From the IMG/VR virus record IMGVR_UViG_2690316243_000012: 6,798 nt of DNA; one strand, 5' to 3'. Shown one piece after another: positions 13 to 6,798 of the stretch. The DNA is from a virus. Lineage: Duplodnaviria > Heunggongvirae > Uroviricota > Caudoviricetes. How positions within the stretch are numbered: position 1 is the stretch's first letter; each line of letters begins with the position of its first letter. Below the pieces are notes generated by a model that was not told where the DNA came from, did not search any database, and saw nothing but the letters and a program-made list of their open reading frames with translations. The position numbers were made by a program, and so were the translations under genes.

Positions 13-1290
13 TTAAGCGCAGCTATTTAGTGAATTAAGTAAATTAGTCAGTGACCTTGTAAAGTCTGTTAAACCTTCCTGTGAACCATCGAACATTAAG
101 GCCAGATTATTATTCCATGAATTACTTAAGCGGCCTAACTGCGTCTGAGTAGAGTTAATAATCTTTTCCCATCCACCAGCTTTATCAATCATCCTTCCCA
201 TTTCAGCGGATACTTTAGGAAGAACATCTTTAGAAAGAACCTTACCGTCTTTCATGGCCTTGTCTAATTCTTCCGTAGTCATCCCAAGACTTCTGGCAAA
301 TAACTGAAAAGCACCTGCCATTCTGTCACCTAATTGACCGCGTAGCTCTTCAGCCTGAATCTTTCCTTTAGATGCCATCTGCTCGAAAGCTTTTAAAATC
401 CCGTTAATTTCATCGGTGCTTAGCCCCATTAATCTGGATGTACCAATCACATTAGAAAATAAGGATTCTTTCTGGTCTGCATTCATATCACCAGCACCAG
501 CGGAAAACTTAGCAAAACTGCTTAATGTTTCAATCTGGTCTACACCACTACTATCAGCAAGATTCTTAACAAATTCTGTAGCTCGTTTAGCACCTTCATC
601 ACCTAAAACGAATTGTGCCGCTCGTTGTGATGCTTCTTTTTTCAGACCAACCTCCATAATCCGCCTGTAAGCTTCTAAGGCTGTCTGAAAACTATAAATG
701 GCTGTACCTGCTTTGATTGCACTCGTAGCTAATACATCCAGACTATTTGAAGCATTTTCACTGTGATTATTTTTGCTGGTGGTCTTGTTAAACTTAGAAA
801 GTGTTTCACGAAGAGACTGATTTAACTTTGCTAACTCACGATTAAAAGTTTCGTTTCCAAGTGTCTTGGATTTACTGCTTAAGCTGTAATACTGGCTTTT
901 AAAATACTTCTCAAGCATAGGATTAAAGTCACGAAGCTTGCTCATATTCGCTGAGTAAGCTGCTGTGATTGCTCTGCTTCCGCTAATTCGTGGCTGTCTT
1001 GGTTGTCTAAGTGGCTTTAAAGTATCCTCAATTTCAGTTTTAATCTTAAACGCTCTAGTGTTTTTAAGACGCTGCTCAATCTTGGAAACAGTTTTATCGA
1101 CATTTCTTTCCATTAGTTTGAGAGAATCATTTAAAGGCGTAGGATTAACTCTAAACGACTTATTCAATCGCTTCTCAATTCGTGATGCTACCTGCATCGT
1201 TTGTTTCTCGGCTTTTTCCAAGCCTTTTAAAACTTTCTGAGAGTTAAAACTTAACTCAATCAGAAAATCATCAACTTTAAATTGTGCCAT
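13..1290 (-). CDS. Phage tail tape-measure-domain protein (425 aa); atypically short, domain near C-terminus
   Basis: ORF-track ORF. ATG at 1290-1288 with SD AAAGAGGTG about 10 nt upstream (rc of 1299-1307); TAA stop at 15-13. Residues ~285-385 (SKGKIQAEELRGQLGDRMAGAFQLFARSLGMTTEELDKAMKDGKVLSKDVLPKV) match the duplicated GK..EEL / G.S/T.EEL.K...GK...D.LPK signature I recall from the conserved core of tape-measure proteins. The N-terminal ~280 aa are K/E/S/N/L-rich (coiled-coil-like). Product call is from memory, not a search. Confidence 0.6.
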   Translation of the reverse strand: MAQFKVDDFLIELSFNSQKVLKGLEKAEKQTMQVASRIEKRLNKSFRVNPTPLNDSLKLMERNVDKTVSKIEQRLKNTRAFKIKTEIEDTLKPLRQPRQPRISGSRAITAAYSANMSKLRDFNPMLEKYFKSQYYSLSSKSKTLGNETFNRELAKLNQSLRETLSKFNKTTSKNNHSENASNSLDVLATSAIKAGTAIYSFQTALEAYRRIMEVGLKKEASQRAAQFVLGDEGAKRATEFVKNLADSSGVDQIETLSSFAKFSAGAGDMNADQKESLFSNVIGTSRLMGLSTDEINGILKAFEQMASKGKIQAEELRGQLGDRMAGAFQLFARSLGMTTEELDKAMKDGKVLSKDVLPKVSAEMGRMIDKAGGWEKIINSTQTQLGRLSNSWNNNLALMFDGSQEGLTDFTRSLTNLLNSLNSCA

Positions 1291-1380
1291 TCATATTTTT
1301 CACCTCTTTAAGCGTGTTGTACGTAAATTCTATTTTTCAGTGTGGGTATTAGCTTTACAGATTTCACGTAGCACACATAC

Positions 1381-1423
1381 AAAAAAAGGGAGAGCTACCG
1401 ATGTCACTCGATAATCTCTCCCC
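1381..1423 (-). terminator. Candidate intrinsic terminator after the 69-aa gene
   Basis: Perfect 7-bp stem GGGAGAG (1388-1394) / CTCTCCC (1416-1422) with a 21-nt loop; on the minus strand the hairpin is followed by a run of 7 T (rc of A-run 1381-1387). The loop is large for a classical terminator. Confidence 0.45.
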
Positions 1424-1446
1424 GTATTTACCCAACCAATTCTTTT

Positions 1447-1656
1447 TTAATGTCGGACAAGATAATGTAATTCCGTTTCACCTATGATTTGAGCATCAGA
1501 AGGAATACGGTCAATACACCACTTTGGAATCTTGCGTGTTTTTGGTTTGTGTGAGGTGATAACTTGACGTTTGTTTTTAATTCTTAAGGCTGGCTTAGTT
1601 TGTAACTTTAAGTTTTCACAAACAGACCGAATAGTCTCTAAACGTTCTTCAAACAT
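1447..1656 (-). CDS. Hypothetical small basic protein (69 aa)
   Basis: ORF-track ORF. ATG at 1656-1654 with strong SD AAAGAGGTG 5 nt upstream (rc of 1662-1670). The same TAAAGAGGTG context precedes the tape-measure-domain gene. Starts 22 nt after the TGA stop of the 236-aa gene. No recognisable family. Confidence 0.5.
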   Translation of the reverse strand: MFEERLETIRSVCENLKLQTKPALRIKNKRQVITSHKPKTRKIPKWCIDRIPSDAQIIGETELHYLVRH

Positions 1657-1678
1657 TAATCACCTCTTTAATTCATAA

Positions 1679-2389
1679 TCAAACAGCCTTGCTATACTTC
1701 TGAGAAATCTTCGTTAACTGCTCAATATCAGCCATCAAAGCAATCTTCTTCTGCGACTCATATTCACTAACAAGTTCTTTCATAGTATCAAGTTCTTTTT
1801 TAAGCTTTTGCTTTAACTTATCCAGTTTACCGGAATAATGCTTAGTCAAATTAGCTTCAGCTAACTGAAGAATCTCTTCATCTGTTTTATCAGTCATCAG
1901 AATAAATTGACCAGAACCCCTTAATGCTTGTCTGACATCAATTAACCGGAACCCTTCAGGGATACTTTGAAGAACTTTAGGAACGTCTTCAATCGCTGTA
2001 CCAAAACCATCATTAAAGTTTCCTTCATAATAGATAAACGGGTTTGACTTAATCTCGTAAGCAATATCATATTCTGAAGGTTTCGAGGTTTCTTCGAAGT
2101 TCTTAGCAGCATCGTAAGCGACATCAAGTCTAAGACGCTGTGATTTTAAAGCTGGGTAATATTCACGCTCAAGCTCAAATAGTGCTTCAGTTTTGCAGAT
2201 ATCAGGCATTTCTTGAGGCTCAGGAGACACAAAGGAAATTACCTTTGGTGACATCTTTAGCTCTTGCTCAAGCTCAATGCGCTTGTCATGCTCTTGACGC
2301 TGAATAGTATGTAGCGGATGTTCACCCTGTGGTGACCAGTCTCCGAAGCTATCAACCTTTTTACCGTTAATATATAAATCGTTTGTCAT
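1679..2389 (-). CDS. Hypothetical protein (236 aa), function unknown
   Basis: ORF-track ORF. ATG at 2389-2387 with SD AGAGGA 7 nt upstream (rc of 2397-2402); TGA stop at 1681-1679. Acidic, coiled-coil-like C-terminus (KLDKLKQKLKKELDTMKELVSEYESQKK). I do not recognise the family. Confidence 0.65.
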   Translation of the reverse strand: MTNDLYINGKKVDSFGDWSPQGEHPLHTIQRQEHDKRIELEQELKMSPKVISFVSPEPQEMPDICKTEALFELEREYYPALKSQRLRLDVAYDAAKNFEETSKPSEYDIAYEIKSNPFIYYEGNFNDGFGTAIEDVPKVLQSIPEGFRLIDVRQALRGSGQFILMTDKTDEEILQLAEANLTKHYSGKLDKLKQKLKKELDTMKELVSEYESQKKIALMADIEQLTKISQKYSKAV

Positions 2390-2413
2390 TATAATTTCCT
2401 CTAAGTGTGGTTA

Positions 2414-2491
2414 TTTCTTAATAGAGCACCTTCAACGCCAATACACTTAGAAGATGACTTAACGATTTATTAAAGATGCTCTATTAAGAAA
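2414..2491. promoter_or_regulatory. Perfect 15-bp inverted repeat pair with 48-bp spacer, 25-102 nt upstream of the 236-aa gene start
   Basis: TTTCTTAATAGAGCA (2414-2428) and its exact reverse complement TGCTCTATTAAGAAA (2477-2491); read directly from the sequence. Could be operator half-sites or a long-range RNA stem in the 5' leader. Confidence 0.4.
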
Positions 2492-2580
2492 AGCCCTAAA
2501 CATAATCTGTGAAGGGCTTTGGAGGTTTGCTTATAACGTTAACGAAGTTTCAGGAAAACTTTCTTTAAAAGCTCTGTTTA

Positions 2581-2617
2581 AAAACTCTTAAAGAAAGCCC
2601 TAACTCATGATTAGGGC
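2581..2617 (-). terminator. Candidate intrinsic terminator ending the upstream minus-strand transcription unit
   Basis: 7-bp stem GCCCTAA (2597-2603) / TTAGGGC (2611-2617) with a 7-nt loop; on the minus strand it is followed by TTTCTTTAAGAGTTTTT (rc of 2581-2596). A second hairpin, AAGCCCT (2491-2497) / AGGGCTT (2513-2519) with a 15-nt loop, lies 80 bp further along the minus strand. Confidence 0.5.
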
Positions 2618-2904
2618 AAAGCTGTAAAGGATTCAATAATGAATGAACAAAGACTTTTTGAGATAGCCTCTCAGACCAACCTGAAAGGCTAGGACGAAAA
2701 GCATTGCACCTTTCCAACTCAGAATATCCATCCATCGGATTATTGAAAGAAAAAATAAGAGAGAATTGCTCTCCCCCATATATACAATTATGTCATGCTC
2801 AAGGTTGTTTGTCAACAGCTTTTAACAGATTGGTAACATTTATACTTTAATAGATGCACCTGCAATCATACCAATCAATACAAAACAGATAATCACCAAT
2901 TCCA

Positions 2905-3228
2905 TTAATGCACCACCTTCGAATCCGTCACCAGAATATTATCGCTATACAAAATTGCTATAGCCGCCTTGAGATATTTTTCAGGGCTAACGCTGTATTT
3001 GTTCGTTTCTTCGATAATAAGACGCTTCATGTTTGAGTCGGTAACAGGAAACATAAAACGCGGTTCACCAGTTTCAATTTCCTGAATAAAGTCTTCAATT
3101 TCTTCTGAGTTTTCAGCCATTAGCTTTAGTAATTTATCAAGGTCAATTGATACACCGGAATCAGCGAAAGCCTGCACCATCATAGCAGTGTCGCTATCAA
3201 TGAAAATCTGTAATTCATATTCGTTCAT
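2905..3228 (-). CDS. Hypothetical acidic protein (107 aa from the ATG start)
   Basis: ORF-track ORF 2905..3261 begins at a TTG. The in-frame ATG at 3228-3226 has a strong SD AAAGGAG 8 nt upstream (minus strand GGTAAAAAGGAGATTTTAAAAATG), so I place the start there. TAA stop at 2907-2905. No recognisable family. Confidence 0.55.
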   Translation of the reverse strand: MNEYELQIFIDSDTAMMVQAFADSGVSIDLDKLLKLMAENSEEIEDFIQEIETGEPRFMFPVTDSNMKRLIIEETNKYSVSPEKYLKAAIAILYSDNILVTDSKVVH

Positions 3229-3248
3229 TTTTAAAATCTCCTTTTTAC

Positions 3249-3370
3249 CAGACCTCCTCAATCGCTCTGTAACGAGCTAAACAGTCTTTTTCAGGGGTAG
3301 CCTGTACAGTGGTATTACCCACCCTAAAATAAGATAGTTTTTTGCGTTAGAATGCGATTGAGAGCGTCTG
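3249..3370 (+). repeat. Repeat element copy A: ~122-bp element with imperfect ~27-bp terminal inverted repeats
   Basis: Left arm CAGACCTCCTCAATCGCTCTGTAACGAG (3249-3276); right arm GCGTTAGAATGCGATTGAGAGCGTCTG (3344-3370), whose reverse complement CAGACGCTCTCAATCGCATTCTAACGC matches the left arm at about 19 of 25 positions. Homologous to copy B (4901-4998) and, inverted, to copy C (6286-6392). Lies between two minus-strand genes, its left end 21 nt from the ATG at 3228. Confidence 0.65.
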
Positions 3371-3406
3371 ATAAGCTGTTTTTCTAATTTCTCTTAAAGT
3401 CTCGGA

Positions 3407-3607
3407 CTACCAATAACCTAATTCCGCTTTATTTCGTTCAAACCATTCCGCTGTAACTGCTGTCTTTAGTGTTGCGTTTGGGCTGGTGGCATGAATGAAG
3501 ATATCTTTTGGATTGCAAGCATCACCGAAACCACCTTCTTTGATGAGCAGGTCTGATACATGCTTAATCATTTTATCTGTCAAATATTCGAATTTAATAC
3601 ATAACAT
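3407..3607 (-). CDS. Hypothetical small protein (66 aa from the ATG start; track ORF extends to a TTG at 3640)
   Basis: ORF-track ORF 3407..3640 begins at a TTG. The in-frame ATG at 3607-3605 overlaps the TAA stop of the upstream HNH-like gene (minus strand TAATG) and has SD GGAG 5 nt upstream, a classic translational-coupling junction. TAG stop at 3409-3407. No recognisable family. Confidence 0.45.
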   Translation of the reverse strand: MLCIKFEYLTDKMIKHVSDLLIKEGGFGDACNPKDIFIHATSPNATLKTAVTAEWFERNKAELGYW

Positions 3608-3879
3608 TAAATCTCCAGGAGTAAATTGTTTGGGTGGCAATTTCTTTTATTACCATCCCTGAAGATAATCTTTTTAGTTGCCTGAACTTCATGATGCAAA
3701 AACCAGATGACATACTTCAGATAATAATCACGAGTGCCATAACGAATCATTGGATTACCGTAAGCATCATCTCTTGTCTTAACCTCTCCACCATCAATCC
3801 ATTCAAGCATTCCTGTCTCATAATTAATCATGAAGTAAGTTGCAAAGAACCGTTTAATATCATCTCGCCATTGCTTCAT
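3607..3879 (-). CDS. HNH_3/NUMOD4-like small protein (90 aa), probably catalytically degenerate
   Basis: ORF-track ORF. ATG at 3879-3877 with SD AGGAGG 7 nt upstream. N-terminal LEWIDGGEV...YGNPMIRYG resembles the NUMOD4 motif; C-terminal YLKYVIWFLHHEV...IIFRDGNKRNCHPNNL resembles the HNH_3 motif (H.DGNK.NN...NL), but the position of the catalytic His reads F-R-D-G. Family assignment from memory. Confidence 0.5.
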   Translation of the reverse strand: MKQWRDDIKRFFATYFMINYETGMLEWIDGGEVKTRDDAYGNPMIRYGTRDYYLKYVIWFLHHEVQATKKIIFRDGNKRNCHPNNLLLEI

Positions 3880-3881
3880 AA

Positions 3882-4160
3882 TCAGACCTCCTGAGACAGT
3901 TTGTGAATTTTGATACTTAGTAACCTTGCTAAATCCAGTCCAAAAGCATTTAAGGATTTCAGACTATCAAGGTCATCTTGCTTAATCCTGATATGGTGTC
4001 TTGCAGCCTCTAAGCGACTATTAAGCAAATCCTGTTCGTTAATATCACGGTTAATTGCAAGCTTCATCACTGCTGAGTGTGGCAGACCTGTAATGTTTTT
4101 GATTCGGTTCAGTTCATCAAAGGCTGTCTTTGTAACTCTGGTTAATGTGTGTTTATTCAT
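3882..4160 (-). CDS. Hypothetical small protein (92 aa), possibly DNA-binding
   Basis: ORF-track ORF. ATG at 4160-4158 directly follows the TAA stop of the 185-aa gene (minus strand TAAATG) with SD GAGGA 8 nt upstream; TGA stop at 3884-3882, 2 nt before the next ATG. No recognisable family. Confidence 0.5.
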   Translation of the reverse strand: MNKHTLTRVTKTAFDELNRIKNITGLPHSAVMKLAINRDINEQDLLNSRLEAARHHIRIKQDDLDSLKSLNAFGLDLARLLSIKIHKLSQEV

Positions 4161-4718
4161 TTAAAAATCCTCTGTAACTAAATAGGGGTCAAACTCGAAA
4201 TCTGGTTGCTCGTTTTCCATTGGCTCAATATTCCCAACGGCAATATGATGTTCAACAATGCCAATTAATTTCGCGCACATCACAGCAAGCAAAGCGCAAT
4301 ATTTATCGCTTGGTAATTCGTAACTAAGTCTGGTTGCCTGTCGCTGAAGATGATTTGTCACGGTGGATGCGTTAATTTCGTCAAGATTCTTTAGCAGATA
4401 AAATAGTTTTTTGTTGTATTTCGGGTGGCCTTCACTTCTACAGAACCCAATAAAAACATCATCAAGCTTGCTTGGTAACTGCTCGTAACTGTCAAAGTTA
4501 GCCAGATAATTTTTAATAGTATTCTTTGTTGTTTTGCGTACTGGCATAAATCTGTCTCGTGGCGTAATGCTACGAATGACCGCTTCAATGTTCTTACGTT
4601 CGGATTTGCTAAAGGTTGGGACTTCGTAGCTGGTGGGGTTGTTTGTGTAAGCGTAGGAGTTGTGCTTGTTGCGTTCTCTTGATGCCTGAAGCATCGCTCT
4701 AAATTCTGAATACTGCAT
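4161..4718 (-). CDS. Hypothetical protein (185 aa); first gene of the minus-strand operon
   Basis: ORF-track ORF. ATG at 4718-4716, TAA stop at 4163-4161. About 45 nt downstream of the predicted minus-strand promoter; the SD is weak (GAGAG ~11 nt upstream). No recognisable family. Confidence 0.6.
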   Translation of the reverse strand: MQYSEFRAMLQASRERNKHNSYAYTNNPTSYEVPTFSKSERKNIEAVIRSITPRDRFMPVRKTTKNTIKNYLANFDSYEQLPSKLDDVFIGFCRSEGHPKYNKKLFYLLKNLDEINASTVTNHLQRQATRLSYELPSDKYCALLAVMCAKLIGIVEHHIAVGNIEPMENEQPDFEFDPYLVTEDF

Positions 4719-4769
4719 TCATGTTCTGACTCTCATAAGATGTTATTATTCTGTTAACCTATATATACA

Positions 4770-4798
4770 ATATTAGCATTTTCAAAGACTAATGTCAA
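4770..4798 (-). promoter_or_regulatory. Candidate sigma70 promoter for the minus-strand operon
   Basis: On the minus strand: -35 TTGACA (rc of 4793-4798), 17-bp spacer, -10 TAATAT (rc of 4770-4775). Read directly; the -35 matches consensus perfectly. Confidence 0.5.
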
Positions 4799-4804
4799 GT
4801 ATTT

Positions 4805-4834
4805 TTAACATTTTCGTAACATCTGTGGTATAAT
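4805..4834 (+). promoter_or_regulatory. Candidate sigma70 promoter with extended -10, driving the plus-strand small-protein transcript
   Basis: -35 TTAACA (4805-4810), 18-bp spacer, extended -10 TGgTATAAT (4826-4834). Its -35 is 6 bp from the -35 of the divergent minus-strand promoter. Confidence 0.55.
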
Positions 4835-4900
4835 GGGTTTATGGGGAGAGTAAAATATGAGGCGTGGCTATGTATTTGGTCGCATATTTTGCATTGCACA

Positions 4901-4998
4901 CAGACCTCTTCAATCGCCCTGTAACGAGTTAAACGACCTCTTCAGGTCAACTCATAAGGTCAGGTACTTTTTGTGTCAGAATGCGATTGAGAGCGTCT
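4901..4998 (+). repeat. Repeat element copy B: ~98-bp homologue of copy A, in the leader of the small membrane-protein gene
   Basis: Left arm CAGACCTCTTCAATCGCCCTGTAACGAG (4901-4928) matches A's left arm at 26 of 28 positions; right arm GTCAGAATGCGATTGAGAGCGTCT (4975-4998) carries the same AGAATGCGATTGAGAGCGTCT core as A. The interior shares the first ~20 bp with A (TAAAC..CT.TTCAGG), then is ~20 bp shorter. Ends 15 nt before the ATG at 5013. Confidence 0.65.
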
Positions 4999-5012
4999 TA
5001 CAAGGAAAACTA

Positions 5013-5189
5013 ATGGTAAATCTCCCTCCTGAGCTGGGGTCACCTGATGTATGGACTGGTGGAGGTATTGGGCTGATTGCAGGCCTGCTACTTCGCTACG
5101 TCCTCGTCAGAGTGCTTGTTGTCTTTAAACTGTTCGGTCGTACATGGACGCTTGACCTTAAGGATAACGACCACACAGACCCCCGTTAA
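5013..5189 (+). CDS. Small single-pass membrane protein (58 aa); candidate toxin, holin-like or exclusion peptide
   Basis: ATG at 5013 with SD AAGGA 7 nt upstream; TAA stop at 5187-5189. Translation MVNLPPELGSPDVWTGGGIGLIAGLLLRYVLVRVLVVFKLFGRTWTLDLKDNDHTDPR has one hydrophobic helix (about residues 15-41). The track ORF 4857..5189 is the same frame extended to an ATG at 4857, which has its own SD GGAGAG; that N-terminal extension is encoded entirely by repeat copy B, so I prefer the short form. Confidence 0.5.
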   Translation: MVNLPPELGSPDVWTGGGIGLIAGLLLRYVLVRVLVVFKLFGRTWTLDLKDNDHTDPR

Positions 5190-5200
5190 ACTCCTTCAAA

Positions 5201-5260
5201 ACCCCTGCACGAGATGACAGATAGAAGTCTATGGTACAGGGGTGTCTTTAGCATTTTGTG
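5201..5260 (+). terminator. Candidate terminator-like hairpin after the small membrane-protein gene
   Basis: Perfect 7-bp stem ACCCCTG (5201-5207) / CAGGGGT (5237-5243) with a 29-nt loop that has its own short inverted repeat (ATAG..CTAT), followed by the T-rich GTCTTTAGCATTTTGTG. The large loop makes this a weak call. Confidence 0.3.
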
Positions 5261-5324
5261 CTATCTATTAAAAAATAGCTTGACAGAACCGGAAAGCTGT
5301 ATCTATCAAGCATTCACCTCTCTG

Positions 5325-5501
5325 ACAGTAATTTCTAAAAGTTCTTATTTTTCAATAAGTTGTAATTAGCCATATATAGAGAACTGACAAGTCTCTTCAC
5401 AGACAACTCTGCAACCTTAACAGTAACTTCTAAAAATGCTTATTTTTCAACGAGTTGTAATCACCCAATATATAAGGCTGTCCAGTACCTTCACAGATAA
5501 C
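5325..5501. repeat. Tandem direct repeat, two ~83-bp units at a ~95-bp period
   Basis: Unit 1 (5325-5407) and unit 2 (5420-5501) share ordered blocks ACAGTAA, TTCTAAAA, TTATTTTTCAA, AGTTGTAAT, ATATATA, CTTCACAGA, AAC, with divergent sequence between them (by eye roughly 70% identical). A partial third copy (ACAGTAACTT plus AT-rich tail) is at 6457-6490. Confidence 0.7.
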
Positions 5502-6285
5502 TTCAAGCCCTCTTAACCGCCCCACTAATCGGGAGAAGAGCGATAACCCCAGAGAGGGAAGCTCCTTTCTTAACCGACCTCTTAAACGACCTTTACAGAC
5601 CTTGTTCAAGGTAATCACAATAGTTTTTCTTCCCTCGGTTTCCTGTGTTCCTCGGCTGGCTATTGAGATTTGAAAGACCTCTGTAAGCGCTCTCTTAGCG
5701 AGAGAAAAATCATTCATAGTGACCCCAAGCGAAGCGCCCCTCTAAAAAAAGATTTTTTAGCTATTTTGTTTAAAAGCATATCAAACGATACATTTTATTG
5801 ATTTAGGTCAAAGACAAAAGCATTGACAAAATGGTAAGATTGTTCACATGACCTTACTTAACAGACTTTTAAGAGACTTTGAAACAGCCTGTTTAACAGG
5901 TCACTACCTCTGGTCTTATCGTTCCCTTCTTTCTAGGTGGTTATCTGTTAAGAGTTTTTCAGTTTTTATTCTTAAGATAATTGTTAAGATGATACTCTCC
6001 CTTCGGGTTATATCGTATCTCTTCTCCCGTTAAATATCCCTTCACAGTCAGACTAAATAACACCTGTGTAGTTCTTGGTAGAATCTTTCAAGGTAACTTA
6101 GCTCTGAGTTTATGAAGTTGACCTATGAGATAGACTCTACCGAATCTGTTAGTCAATTGTTGCTTAGGTGCTGCTAAGGCTTACTTAGTGGAAAGAGAGG
6201 GGATATGTGACCATAGGGGAACCCCTCCTGTTAAAAGACTACTTAGAAGTCTGAGGTTTTAGTAAAATCTGTGAATATGGCTTCT

Positions 6286-6392
6286 CAGACGCTCTGTAAC
6301 GCATTCTAAGCGATTTTACCCCTTTATTTTAAGGTGGTTAGTACATCCCTATAGGTTACCCCTAAAAATGGGGTTAAAACTCGCTACAGAGC
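6286..6392 (-). repeat. Repeat element copy C: inverted, diverged copy of element A/B lacking the outer left arm
   Basis: Plus-strand CAGACGCTCTGTAACGCATTCTAAGCG (6286-6312) matches the reverse complement of A's right arm (CAGACGCTCT....GCATTCTAA identical apart from CAATC to GTAAC). The reverse complement of 6313-6392 aligns with A's interior and inner left arm (AGGGGTAACCTATAGGG vs AGGGGTAGCCTGTACAG; CCACCTTAAAATAAA vs CCACCCTAAAATAAG; GCTCTGTAGCGAG vs GCTCTGTAACGAG). Confidence 0.55.
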
Positions 6393-6643
6393 TTTCTATG
6401 AGATTAGCTTCTAATCGAATCAACTATGAGGTTTGGTAGGATTGTGCAAAATCTGTACAGTAACTTTTCAGAATCTGAAAATTTTTATAAAAAATGACTA
6501 GCCCTCTTTGAATCTCATCTTCCCCGAATCTTCAAAAATATCTGACAGATGTCTGTAGCTGCTAAGTACCCGTCACACCAGCTATGTGACCCCCTTGGCA
6601 AAAAAGCCAAATATCAGCTACATCCATGTAACTATTCAGTAAC

Positions 6644-6798
6644 TTATTTAGCAAGTCTGTAATAAGTTGCTCTAGAGATTCCTAACTCTTCCTGAATCTG
6701 CAACCTCGTCTTACCTTGTGAAATAAGCGTCTGTACAGCCTCTGAAGAAGCTTTTACAGGCCTCCCCATATGTACCCCTTCAGCTTTAGCACGTTCAA
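6644..6798 (-). CDS. Small serine recombinase (resolvase/invertase family), C-terminal HTH domain only; 5' part lies beyond the window
   Basis: Not in the ORF track (only 50 codons inside the window). Minus-strand translation of 6796-6647 is ERAKAEGVHMGRPVKASSEAVQTLISQGKTRLQIQEELGISRATYYRLAK, then TAA at 6646-6644. The GRP motif followed by a helix-turn-helix ending ..G.SR.T.YR.. is the characteristic C-terminus of Hin/Gin/Tn3-resolvase-type serine recombinases (from memory). Confidence 0.7.
   Translation of the reverse strand, partial: ERAKAEGVHMGRPVKASSEAVQTLISQGKTRLQIQEELGISRATYYRLAK

Follow-up and report, generated by a model that had tools for sequence, protein, structure and literature searches.

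The 6,798-nt stretch of viral DNA analysed here (IMG/VR record IMGVR_UViG_2690316243_000012, Caudoviricetes; hereafter the window) harbors two head-to-tail repeat units of about 95 bp within a long non-coding region, and this tandem cassette is the subject of the present report. The long open reading frames (ORFs) at 13-4718 are all located on the minus strand, the first one with a tape-measure protein (TMP) domain, and the right end of the window corresponds to the 3′ end of a gene for a 182-aa serine recombinase of the resolvase/invertase type. In complete E. coli genomes this DNA is part of an insertion of ~11.4 kb, hereafter the island, which occupies either the tonB-yciI or the wrbA-ymdF junction and is carried by 536 of 5426 genomes (~10%). 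Hosts of the island are Shigella sonnei, E. coli, E. albertii and Citrobacter; the exact 185-aa protein encoded in the window is that of Shigella sonnei and is on record on at least 1000 contigs, so that the island is apparently frequent among isolates of this species. The island is arranged in the order large serine recombinase (506-547 aa), 257-aa 'baseplate' protein, tape-measure protein, six to eight small orphan genes, non-coding region and small recombinase. Its structural genes are restricted to the TMP and one tail gene, those for capsid and terminase being absent.

Tandem Repeats Finder (TRF) delineates 5325-5502 as a tandem repeat with a period of 95 and 1.9 copies (81% matches, 3% indels, score 240), and in the MAFFT alignment the two units share 84% column identity with a single 1-nt indel. 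The two tandem units of ~95 bp proposed in an earlier reading of the window from its letters alone (the sequence-only reading) are thus real, and so is the succession of AGTTGTAAT (5358-5366 and 5453-5461) and TATATA (5373-5378 and 5469-5474) in each of them. Their framing, however, is improved by placing the bounds at 5325-5419 and 5420-~5510, by which each unit begins with a CTKRACAG box. The repeat is kept in register, with a period of 94-95, in ~55 related loci from genomes, viral contigs and metagenomes, and it is found in 414 of the 5426 complete E. coli genomes; as place and register are the same in so many loci and genomes, it is more than a product of chance.

These relatives were mostly retrieved with a pattern derived from the unit itself; three loci were retrieved via a protein instead, and all three contain units. 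Within the non-coding control DNA of the island, the tandem cassette ranks among the segments with the highest conservation. Its median identity to the window amounts to 93.7% for unit 1 and 87% for unit 2, compared with 83% for the adjacent gene of the 185-aa protein (p185) and 75% for that of a 236-aa protein (p236). Column analysis of 57 distinct unit sequences, to which all column numbers given below refer, reveals an almost invariant 5′ part of 60 nt with the pattern ACAGTAAYTTCTAAAA..CTTATTTTTCAAT.AGTTGTAAT[TAG/CAC]CCA.ATATA. Conservation is not confined to the AGTTGTAAT...ATATATA core but spans the whole 5′ ~60 nt. Columns 24-34, 38-45, 49-51, 56-60 and 77-84 are invariant or nearly so, variable columns are grouped at 8-12, 20-23 and 35-36, and the CTTCACAG box which ends the unit is invariant in 57/57 sequences. 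The most distant relative, Citrobacter L008 (~70% identical overall), possesses one unit, in which the core CTTATTnnTCAATGAGTTGTAATTAGCCAT is retained.

Copy number was counted in the 37 loci for which both flanking anchors were found by BLAST: two units are present in 26 of them, one unit in 10 and three units in a single locus. Most of the single-unit loci are hybrids composed of the head of unit 1 and the tail of unit 2, which is what unequal crossing-over would yield. Of the free variation in number and sequence among relatives that the sequence-only reading had regarded as telling against its proposal, only the variation in number (1, 2 or 3) is found, whereas the sequence does not vary freely (93.7% for unit 1). 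A duplication devoid of function, in which slippage or unequal crossing-over of one segment would have produced copies kept alike by gene conversion and recent ancestry, would account for the varying copy number, for single-unit arrays that are the hybrids expected of unequal recombination, and for the conservation of the whole non-coding region rather than of the units alone. Such an origin is nevertheless considered improbable: none of the relatives examined lacks the unit altogether, not even Citrobacter with its CTTATTnnTCAATGAGTTGTAATTAGCCAT, although the bias of unit-based sampling applies to this count; invariant and variable columns are distributed very unevenly; and the units are better conserved than the flanking genes.

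No conserved ORF is found across the units, a 26-codon frame in unit 2 losing its ATG in relatives. ORFs of 95 and 51 aa which overlap the units were rejected as genes, their frames crossing indels in relatives. As no frame is conserved, the units are not coding. Searches at the RNA level gave no Rfam match at E up to 1 and no tRNA or tmRNA in the window, and no terminator is located in or after the units, the sole terminator-like site in 4600-6798 being that at 4864-4883. The unit does not fold better than shuffled sequences on either strand (z −0.49 and −0.78), and RNAalifold yields a consensus of −0.6 and −0.1 kcal/mol for the 57 distinct units, with no covariation. Because the dyad described below occurs in both orientations and neither RNA structure, covariation nor a terminator is observed, the units would act at the level of DNA and not of RNA. 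Of the possibilities that had been left side by side in the sequence-only reading, namely promoter or small RNA (sRNA) modules and tandem binding sites, a promoter-like or binding-site DNA element is therefore favoured, whereas an sRNA finds no support in the Rfam, terminator, folding, covariation and ORF analyses.

The idea of tandem sRNA paralogues deserves mention because of a precedent in satellites. In PLE, an island of Vibrio cholerae with phage ICP1 as helper, a helper-activated promoter drives the sRNA SviR, which has a conserved seed (bioRxiv 10.1101/2022.04.08.487710). By analogy, the conserved and unstructured 5′ part of the units would serve as a seed for mRNAs of the island or of its presumed helper, a Felix O1-like phage as detailed below, and the conserved ~25 nt just past the putative start (AGUUGUAAU...AUAUA) are in fact unstructured. 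Against this stand the missing Rfam family and intrinsic terminator, folding at the level of shuffles and the lack of consensus structure or covariation in the 57 units; furthermore, the only hairpin is out of register and flipped in some copies, and no significant complementary or similar stretch is found in the helper genome on either strand. The units are hence very unlikely to be sRNA genes.

A consensus scan predicts a promoter-like arrangement in the 5′ half of either unit (Table 1). The two hexamers occupy conserved columns (1-7 and 24-30); columns 8-12 and 20-23, which vary, belong to the spacer between them, and the 5′ half is free of indels. The 31 nt of unit 2 that extend from the box to the −10-like hexamer agree at 22/31 positions with the predicted promoter of the island's main operon (4769-4799) when the latter is read as its reverse complement, a value reached by 3/200 shuffles. 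From the conserved arrangement, starts of transcription would be expected near 5358 and 5453 and not at 5385-5395 and 5480-5490, where they had been placed earlier. The pair TTCAAT (5351-5356) and TATATA (5373-5378), formerly proposed as −35 and −10 elements, lies at these positions with a spacer of 16 nt but makes a poor promoter, since a T at −7 is missing and the spacer contains the invariant block GTTGTAAT, which is unlike a promoter spacer. Similarly, the perfect TTGACA hexamer reported at 5280-5285 exists but is no good promoter half, as the hexamer 18 nt on is TATCAA, again without a T at −7.

The −35-like box is a member of the CTTNACAG family, YTTNACAG, which occurs 18 times in the window compared with 2.9 ± 1.8 expected occurrences (~6-fold), a number that none of 200 shuffles reaches. 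Eight of these boxes are located on the plus strand within 5279-6047, among them the unit 2 head and both unit tails; unit 1 has CTCTGACAG at its head, a near-variant fitting only the looser motif YTNACAR. Each unit comprises two to three boxes (CTTNACAG/CTGACAAG). In a Felix O1-type phage the YTTNACAG box is the −35 element of repeated early promoters, and it also fits the extended −35 consensus of E. coli. YTNACAR boxes, mostly CTTAACAR, are furthermore found 28-33 times on one strand of a 1.7-kb terminal non-coding region of Felixounavirus, compared with 2.5 per kb genome-wide, and there they often follow each other at a spacing of 11 bp (records L006 1551-3247 and L014 465-2157). This phage region is unannotated in most records, and no paper discussing it was found.

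The AT-rich core of the units resembles the IHF consensus WATCAANNNNTTR at 8 of the 9 specified positions (Table 1). TCAA and TTG are invariant in the distinct units, and the variable columns lie within the NNNN of the consensus. The core is followed by a dyad, and that of unit 2 resembles a flipped form of its counterpart in unit 1. Among relatives the CTGNNMAG dyad assumes several forms in both orientations, as exemplified by AGAGAACTGACAAGTCTCT versus AGAGACTTGTCAGTTCTCT (unit 2 of L058).

Compared with phage and plasmid sequences, the window DNA gave no megablast match; in distant mode only short matches to Felixounavirus were obtained, and none to plasmids. These only phage DNA matches comprise 38-71 nt with 82-95% identity (blastn against 10 Felixounavirus records) and fall into an unannotated region, namely the 1.7-kb non-coding stretch, located between convergent genes, that contains the direct terminal repeat. 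The repeat is 618 bp long as annotated in UAB_69, and several phage records begin exactly at one of its boundaries. For Pr103Blw a direct terminal repeat of 581 bp was determined by PhageTerm (PMC8303462), and Felix O1-type phages package their DNA via a terminal-repeat mechanism and not via cos sites (PMC8303462, PMC11737134).

An nhmmer profile built from four phage terminal regions was run on the window and matched two segments to the right of the units (Table 1). The match starting at 6439 continues as far as 6746, its part inside the recombinase gene being only weakly aligned. In an alignment of five islands (L003, L009, L010, L011 and L008), the window and three phages, the blocks at the boundary, CTGC/T..GTA, are invariant, and TTCAGAATCTGAAAATTTTTATAAAA, AAAAATATC and CTTTGCAAAA..AAATATC are likewise common to islands and phages. 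A significant homologue of the right boundary was not detected, the best match (5968-5989) being within the range of shuffles. The homologue of the internal repeat segment is located upstream of the left-boundary homologue in the island, so that their order is permuted with respect to the phage. The region around 6562/6563 is probably a pirated genome-end or packaging site.

Table 1. Features of the window relevant to the tandem cassette; a dot denotes features without assigned strand.
Feature	Position	Strand	Remarks
Conserved non-coding region holding the units	4720..6640 (~1.9 kb)	.	No conserved ORF except 5013-5189; 81-99% identity in relatives
Predicted promoter of leftward operon	4770..4798	-	TTGACA, 17 nt, TAATAT; resembles 5′ half of units
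CTTGACAG box just upstream of array	5279..5286	+	CTTNACAG family; not listed by promoter scan
Promoter-like arrangement, unit 1	5322..5351	+	CTGACA, 18 nt, TATTTT; 9/12; consensus scan, predicted
Unit 1 of tandem cassette	5325..5419	+	TRF, unit alignment; nearly invariant in relatives
IHF-consensus-like core, unit 1	5350..5362	+	TTTCAATAAGTTG; 8/9 specified positions of WATCAANNNNTTR; T-tract before, invariant TAAT after
Dyad, unit 1	5378..5396	.	AGAGA-ACTGACAAG-TCTCT, core CTGNNMAG; read from sequence
CTTCACAG box, unit 1 tail	5395..5402	+	Invariant in 57 distinct units
Promoter-like arrangement, unit 2	5417..5446	+	TTAACA, 18 nt, TATTTT; 9/12; consensus scan, predicted
Unit 2 of tandem cassette	5420..5510	+	TRF (TRF end 5502), unit alignment
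IHF-consensus-like core, unit 2	5445..5457	+	TTTCAACGAGTTG; 8/9 specified positions of WATCAANNNNTTR; adjacent T-tract
Dyad, unit 2	5474..5491	.	AAGG-CTGTCCAGTA-CCTT; resembles flipped form of unit 1 dyad
CTTCACAG box, unit 2 tail	5489..5496	+	Invariant in 57 distinct units
Homologue of internal terminal-repeat segment	5832..5943	+	nhmmer E 6e-9; blastn
Homologue of region spanning terminal-repeat left end	6439..6640	+	nhmmer E 2.6e-14; boundary equivalent 6562/6563 (CTGC/TAAGTA)

The relation to Felix O1-like phages extends to two proteins of the island. Its TMP is 31% identical to the TMP of the Felix O1-like phage REP5 (E 2e-65), and the 257-aa protein is 65% identical to the product of the gene that immediately follows the tape measure in REP5 (E 1e-120), the pair being found for example at 13414-16468 of island L011; for the other island proteins no phage homologue was found. 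The TMP ORF of the window (13-1290, minus strand) comprises 425 aa compared with 707-725 aa in E. coli relatives, so that the protein may be truncated in the Shigella copy. In addition, a metagenome contig of 11,233 nt (L071, ERZ506742 NODE-633) has a terminal overlap of 55 nt and a circularly permuted gene order in which the two recombinase genes are adjacent. Overlap and permuted order point to a closed circle or a concatemer of the island, seen in a single assembly. Taken together, the terminal-repeat homologues, the homology of TMP and 257-aa protein and the circular contig suggest that the island would be linked to lytic Felix O1-like phages, either as a satellite resembling PLE or as a defence island. 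Among the island proteins no match to replication families was obtained in Pfam, NCBIfam or PHROG, and no initiator is recognisable. AlphaFold predictions from single sequences of the 185-aa and 236-aa proteins reached a pLDDT of 39 and 50, respectively, which is too low for a fold search.

The large recombinases of the islands are diverse (26-91% identity), consistent with several integration sites. At L008 7844-8413, L062 9755-10288 and L093 592-1137 a different small serine recombinase, ~36% identical, is found in opposite orientation to the non-coding region.

The units are best read as a non-coding cassette that would function at the DNA level, as a promoter or as a protein-binding element, and not as an sRNA gene, and they are probably part of the machinery by which the island exploits Felix O1-like phages. 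It is possible, and tentatively preferred here, that the cassette combines a regulated promoter with an architectural site and fires rightward transcription to the genome-end region, thereby helping to activate replication or packaging. This proposal is based on the conserved −35/−10 geometry, the likeness to the operon promoter, the helper-activated promoter of PLE and the tandem-promoter origin of T7. The cassette would be composed, in this order, of the CTKRACAG box, TATTTT 18 bp on, the AT-rich core (T-tract, TCAA-N4-TTG, GTAAT, TATATA), the CTGNNMAG dyad and CTTCACAG. RNA polymerase, either unmodified or helper-modified, and a bending or regulatory protein would bind to it, and rightward non-coding transcription would be directed at the helper-like terminal-repeat and genome-end site, which follows after ~1.1 kb. 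In this manner the cassette would serve as a cis-acting activator of island replication or packaging upon helper infection, for which one copy would suffice, additional copies adding strength. That the cassette binds protein, is transcribed and is linked to replication or packaging is in each case inferred.

Several observations weigh against this proposal. The hexamers are weak (9/12, spacer of 18 nt), and the region contains 9 promoter-like sites compared with 4.6 ± 2.1 in shuffles, i.e. only about twice as many. In Citrobacter L008 the −10-like hexamer is altered to TATTAA and the head carries a 9-nt insertion. A simple promoter leaves ~30 invariant bp downstream of the putative −10 element unexplained, and matches to the IHF consensus with at most one mismatch are not above chance (11 found, 13.6 expected). 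Moreover, no ORF, structured RNA or terminator downstream would provide the transcript with an obvious product. Homologues of the unit were found neither in the Felix O1-type REP5 genome (best nhmmer E 0.065) nor among 50,697 phage records, the best of the weak matches being uninformative. As the relatives were mostly retrieved with a unit-derived pattern, islands without units would escape, and the status of the island as a satellite is itself inferred. The intergenic modules of Felix early genes and the regions upstream of late genes bear no likeness to the unit either.

The closest rival to the promoter cassette is a protein-binding platform independent of transcription, that is, an enhancer of replication or packaging like P4 crr, the PLE origin repeats or lambda cosB, in which a protein of helper or island would occupy the CTTNACAG/CTGNNMAG boxes and the AT-rich core would be bent by IHF or would melt as an unwinding element. 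In its favour, each unit contains two to three strand-biased boxes that share their vocabulary with the arrays found, phased at 11 bp, in the terminal region of Felix, the core fits WATCAANNNNTTR with its variable columns at the N positions, the dyad flips without loss, and a single copy is enough while additional ones are tolerated. Since no replication initiator is recognisable in the island, the island would depend on borrowed helper functions, and in PLE the origin lies within the repeats of the non-coding region (PMC7145576). The units are, however, ~1.1 kb away from the genome-end-like site and do not adjoin it, the helper genome contains no homologue of them, and the box, being an extended E. 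coli −35 consensus, fits a promoter equally well; furthermore, the IHF match is without statistical support. A binding platform of this kind is regarded as rather unlikely, but the two explanations are not mutually exclusive.

In order to place the cassette among known systems, it was compared with regulatory repeats of other mobile elements. Satellite P4 contains in crr two direct repeats of 120 bp with copies of the origin iteron, of which one repeat is enough and which are bound by the alpha primase-helicase. Both systems feature direct tandem repeats of ~100 bp in a satellite, with several short boxes each and a single copy apparently sufficient; however, the box of P4 is bound by its own alpha primase-helicase, no such protein is seen in the island, and the island is without a defined second box cluster that would correspond to 'ori'. 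In phage T7 the tandem promoters phi1.1A and phi1.1B form the primary origin, with A1-A3 near the left end. The similarity to T7 consists of closely spaced tandem promoter modules and AT-rich non-coding DNA near the genome end of a phage with direct terminal repeats, but the origin promoters of T7 are mapped and read by the phage RNA polymerase, whereas the units are weak sigma-70-like matches. In lambda cosB, terminase-binding R sites are separated by the IHF site I1 and adjoin the cleavage site. There, as predicted here, short boxes flank an IHF-type bend site in packaging-related non-coding DNA; cosB abuts the cleavage site, however, unlike the units with their distance of ~1.1 kb from the genome-end-like site, and the IHF match of the units is at chance level.

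In the 2.7-kb non-coding region of PLE four types of repeat are found, and the iterons of the origin are one of them (PMC7145576); the region also accommodates the helper-activated sRNA promoter (bioRxiv 10.1101/2022.04.08.487710). With PLE the island shares the architecture of a small integrative element with a large serine recombinase, a strictly lytic myovirus helper (presumed here) and 2-3 kb of non-coding DNA packed with several repeat families. Sequence similarity is lacking, however, a RepA_N-type or other initiator is not recognisable in the island, and the island units are composite and 95 bp long, whereas PLE iterons are short and semi-palindromic. Moreover, the island possesses tail genes and a genome-end site that have homologues in the presumed helper.

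Further repeats and genes are located in the vicinity of the cassette. Just downstream of the units (5503-5600), the block GCGATAACCCCAGAGAGGGAAGCTCC at ~5531-5556 is invariant even in Citrobacter, and a 12-bp tandem repeat, TCTTAAACGACC x2.1, is found at 5568-5592 with a related copy at 4929-4945. A second stretch without convincing ORF, 2390-2904 between the genes of the 236-aa and a 118-aa protein, holds a 13-bp tandem repeat (AAAACTCTGTTTA x2.6, 2555-2588) as well as YTTNACAG boxes at 2507, 2622 and 2821. A third repeat family of ~105-130 nt is represented by three copies in two orientations, namely 3249-3376 (+), 4901-5004 (+) and 6280-6392 (−), the ends of which are partly complementary. 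The copy at 4901-5004 is located in the 5′ leader of a small membrane-protein gene and is absent from L001, L008, L009 and L028; because of this absence from several relatives the element looks like a small mobile insertion similar to a miniature inverted-repeat transposable element. An invertible segment between 27-nt inverted arms (4978-5004 and 6281-6307) near the small recombinase was considered and rejected: the ~55 relatives are all collinear without any inverted variant, and the arms belong to a dispersed element of ~110 nt that is missing at one site in many relatives. Likewise, the units were rejected as a res site for the small recombinase, direct 95-bp repeats being unlike the three-subsite architecture.

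The small membrane-protein gene at 5013-5189 (+) encodes a conserved hydrophobic protein of 58 aa (MVNLPPELGSPDVW...) without family match, preceded by a strong predicted promoter (TTAACA, 18 nt, TGgTATAAT, 4805-4834) and followed by a hairpin at ~5204-5241; the protein is possibly a toxin, a holin-like or an exclusion protein. The first half of a 110-aa ORF starting at 4857 is derived from the inserted repeat element. A 90-aa HNH gene (window 3607-3879) is missing or replaced in many relatives, genes of the homing-endonuclease type coming and going, and in L001 an additional HNH/AP2-like ORF of 174 aa is inserted into the non-coding region (9370-9894).

Felix O1-like phages are widely used in typing, biocontrol and therapy of Salmonella and E. 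coli and are regarded as strictly lytic. Neither a published description of the island nor one of any satellite of these phages was found. PLE and P4 already provide examples of satellites with long tandem repeats in their non-coding control DNA, whereas the cassette and the island family appear to be undescribed. That the island represents the first family of satellites parasitising the strictly lytic Felix O1-like phages, in Escherichia, Shigella and Citrobacter, with the cassettes as an essential helper-responsive switch or origin, is a far-reaching and at present doubtful proposition. If true, the island would be the enterobacterial counterpart of PLE, having captured a phage genome-end site and two tail genes. 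An island of this frequency that copies the genome-end site and tail genes of a phage could block the phage, ride in its particles, or both, and either would affect the efficacy of phage therapy as well as gene transfer. The cassette would also provide access to the 1.7-kb terminal non-coding stretch of the Felix O1-type phages, which is unstudied, with its ~30 phased TTAACAR boxes.

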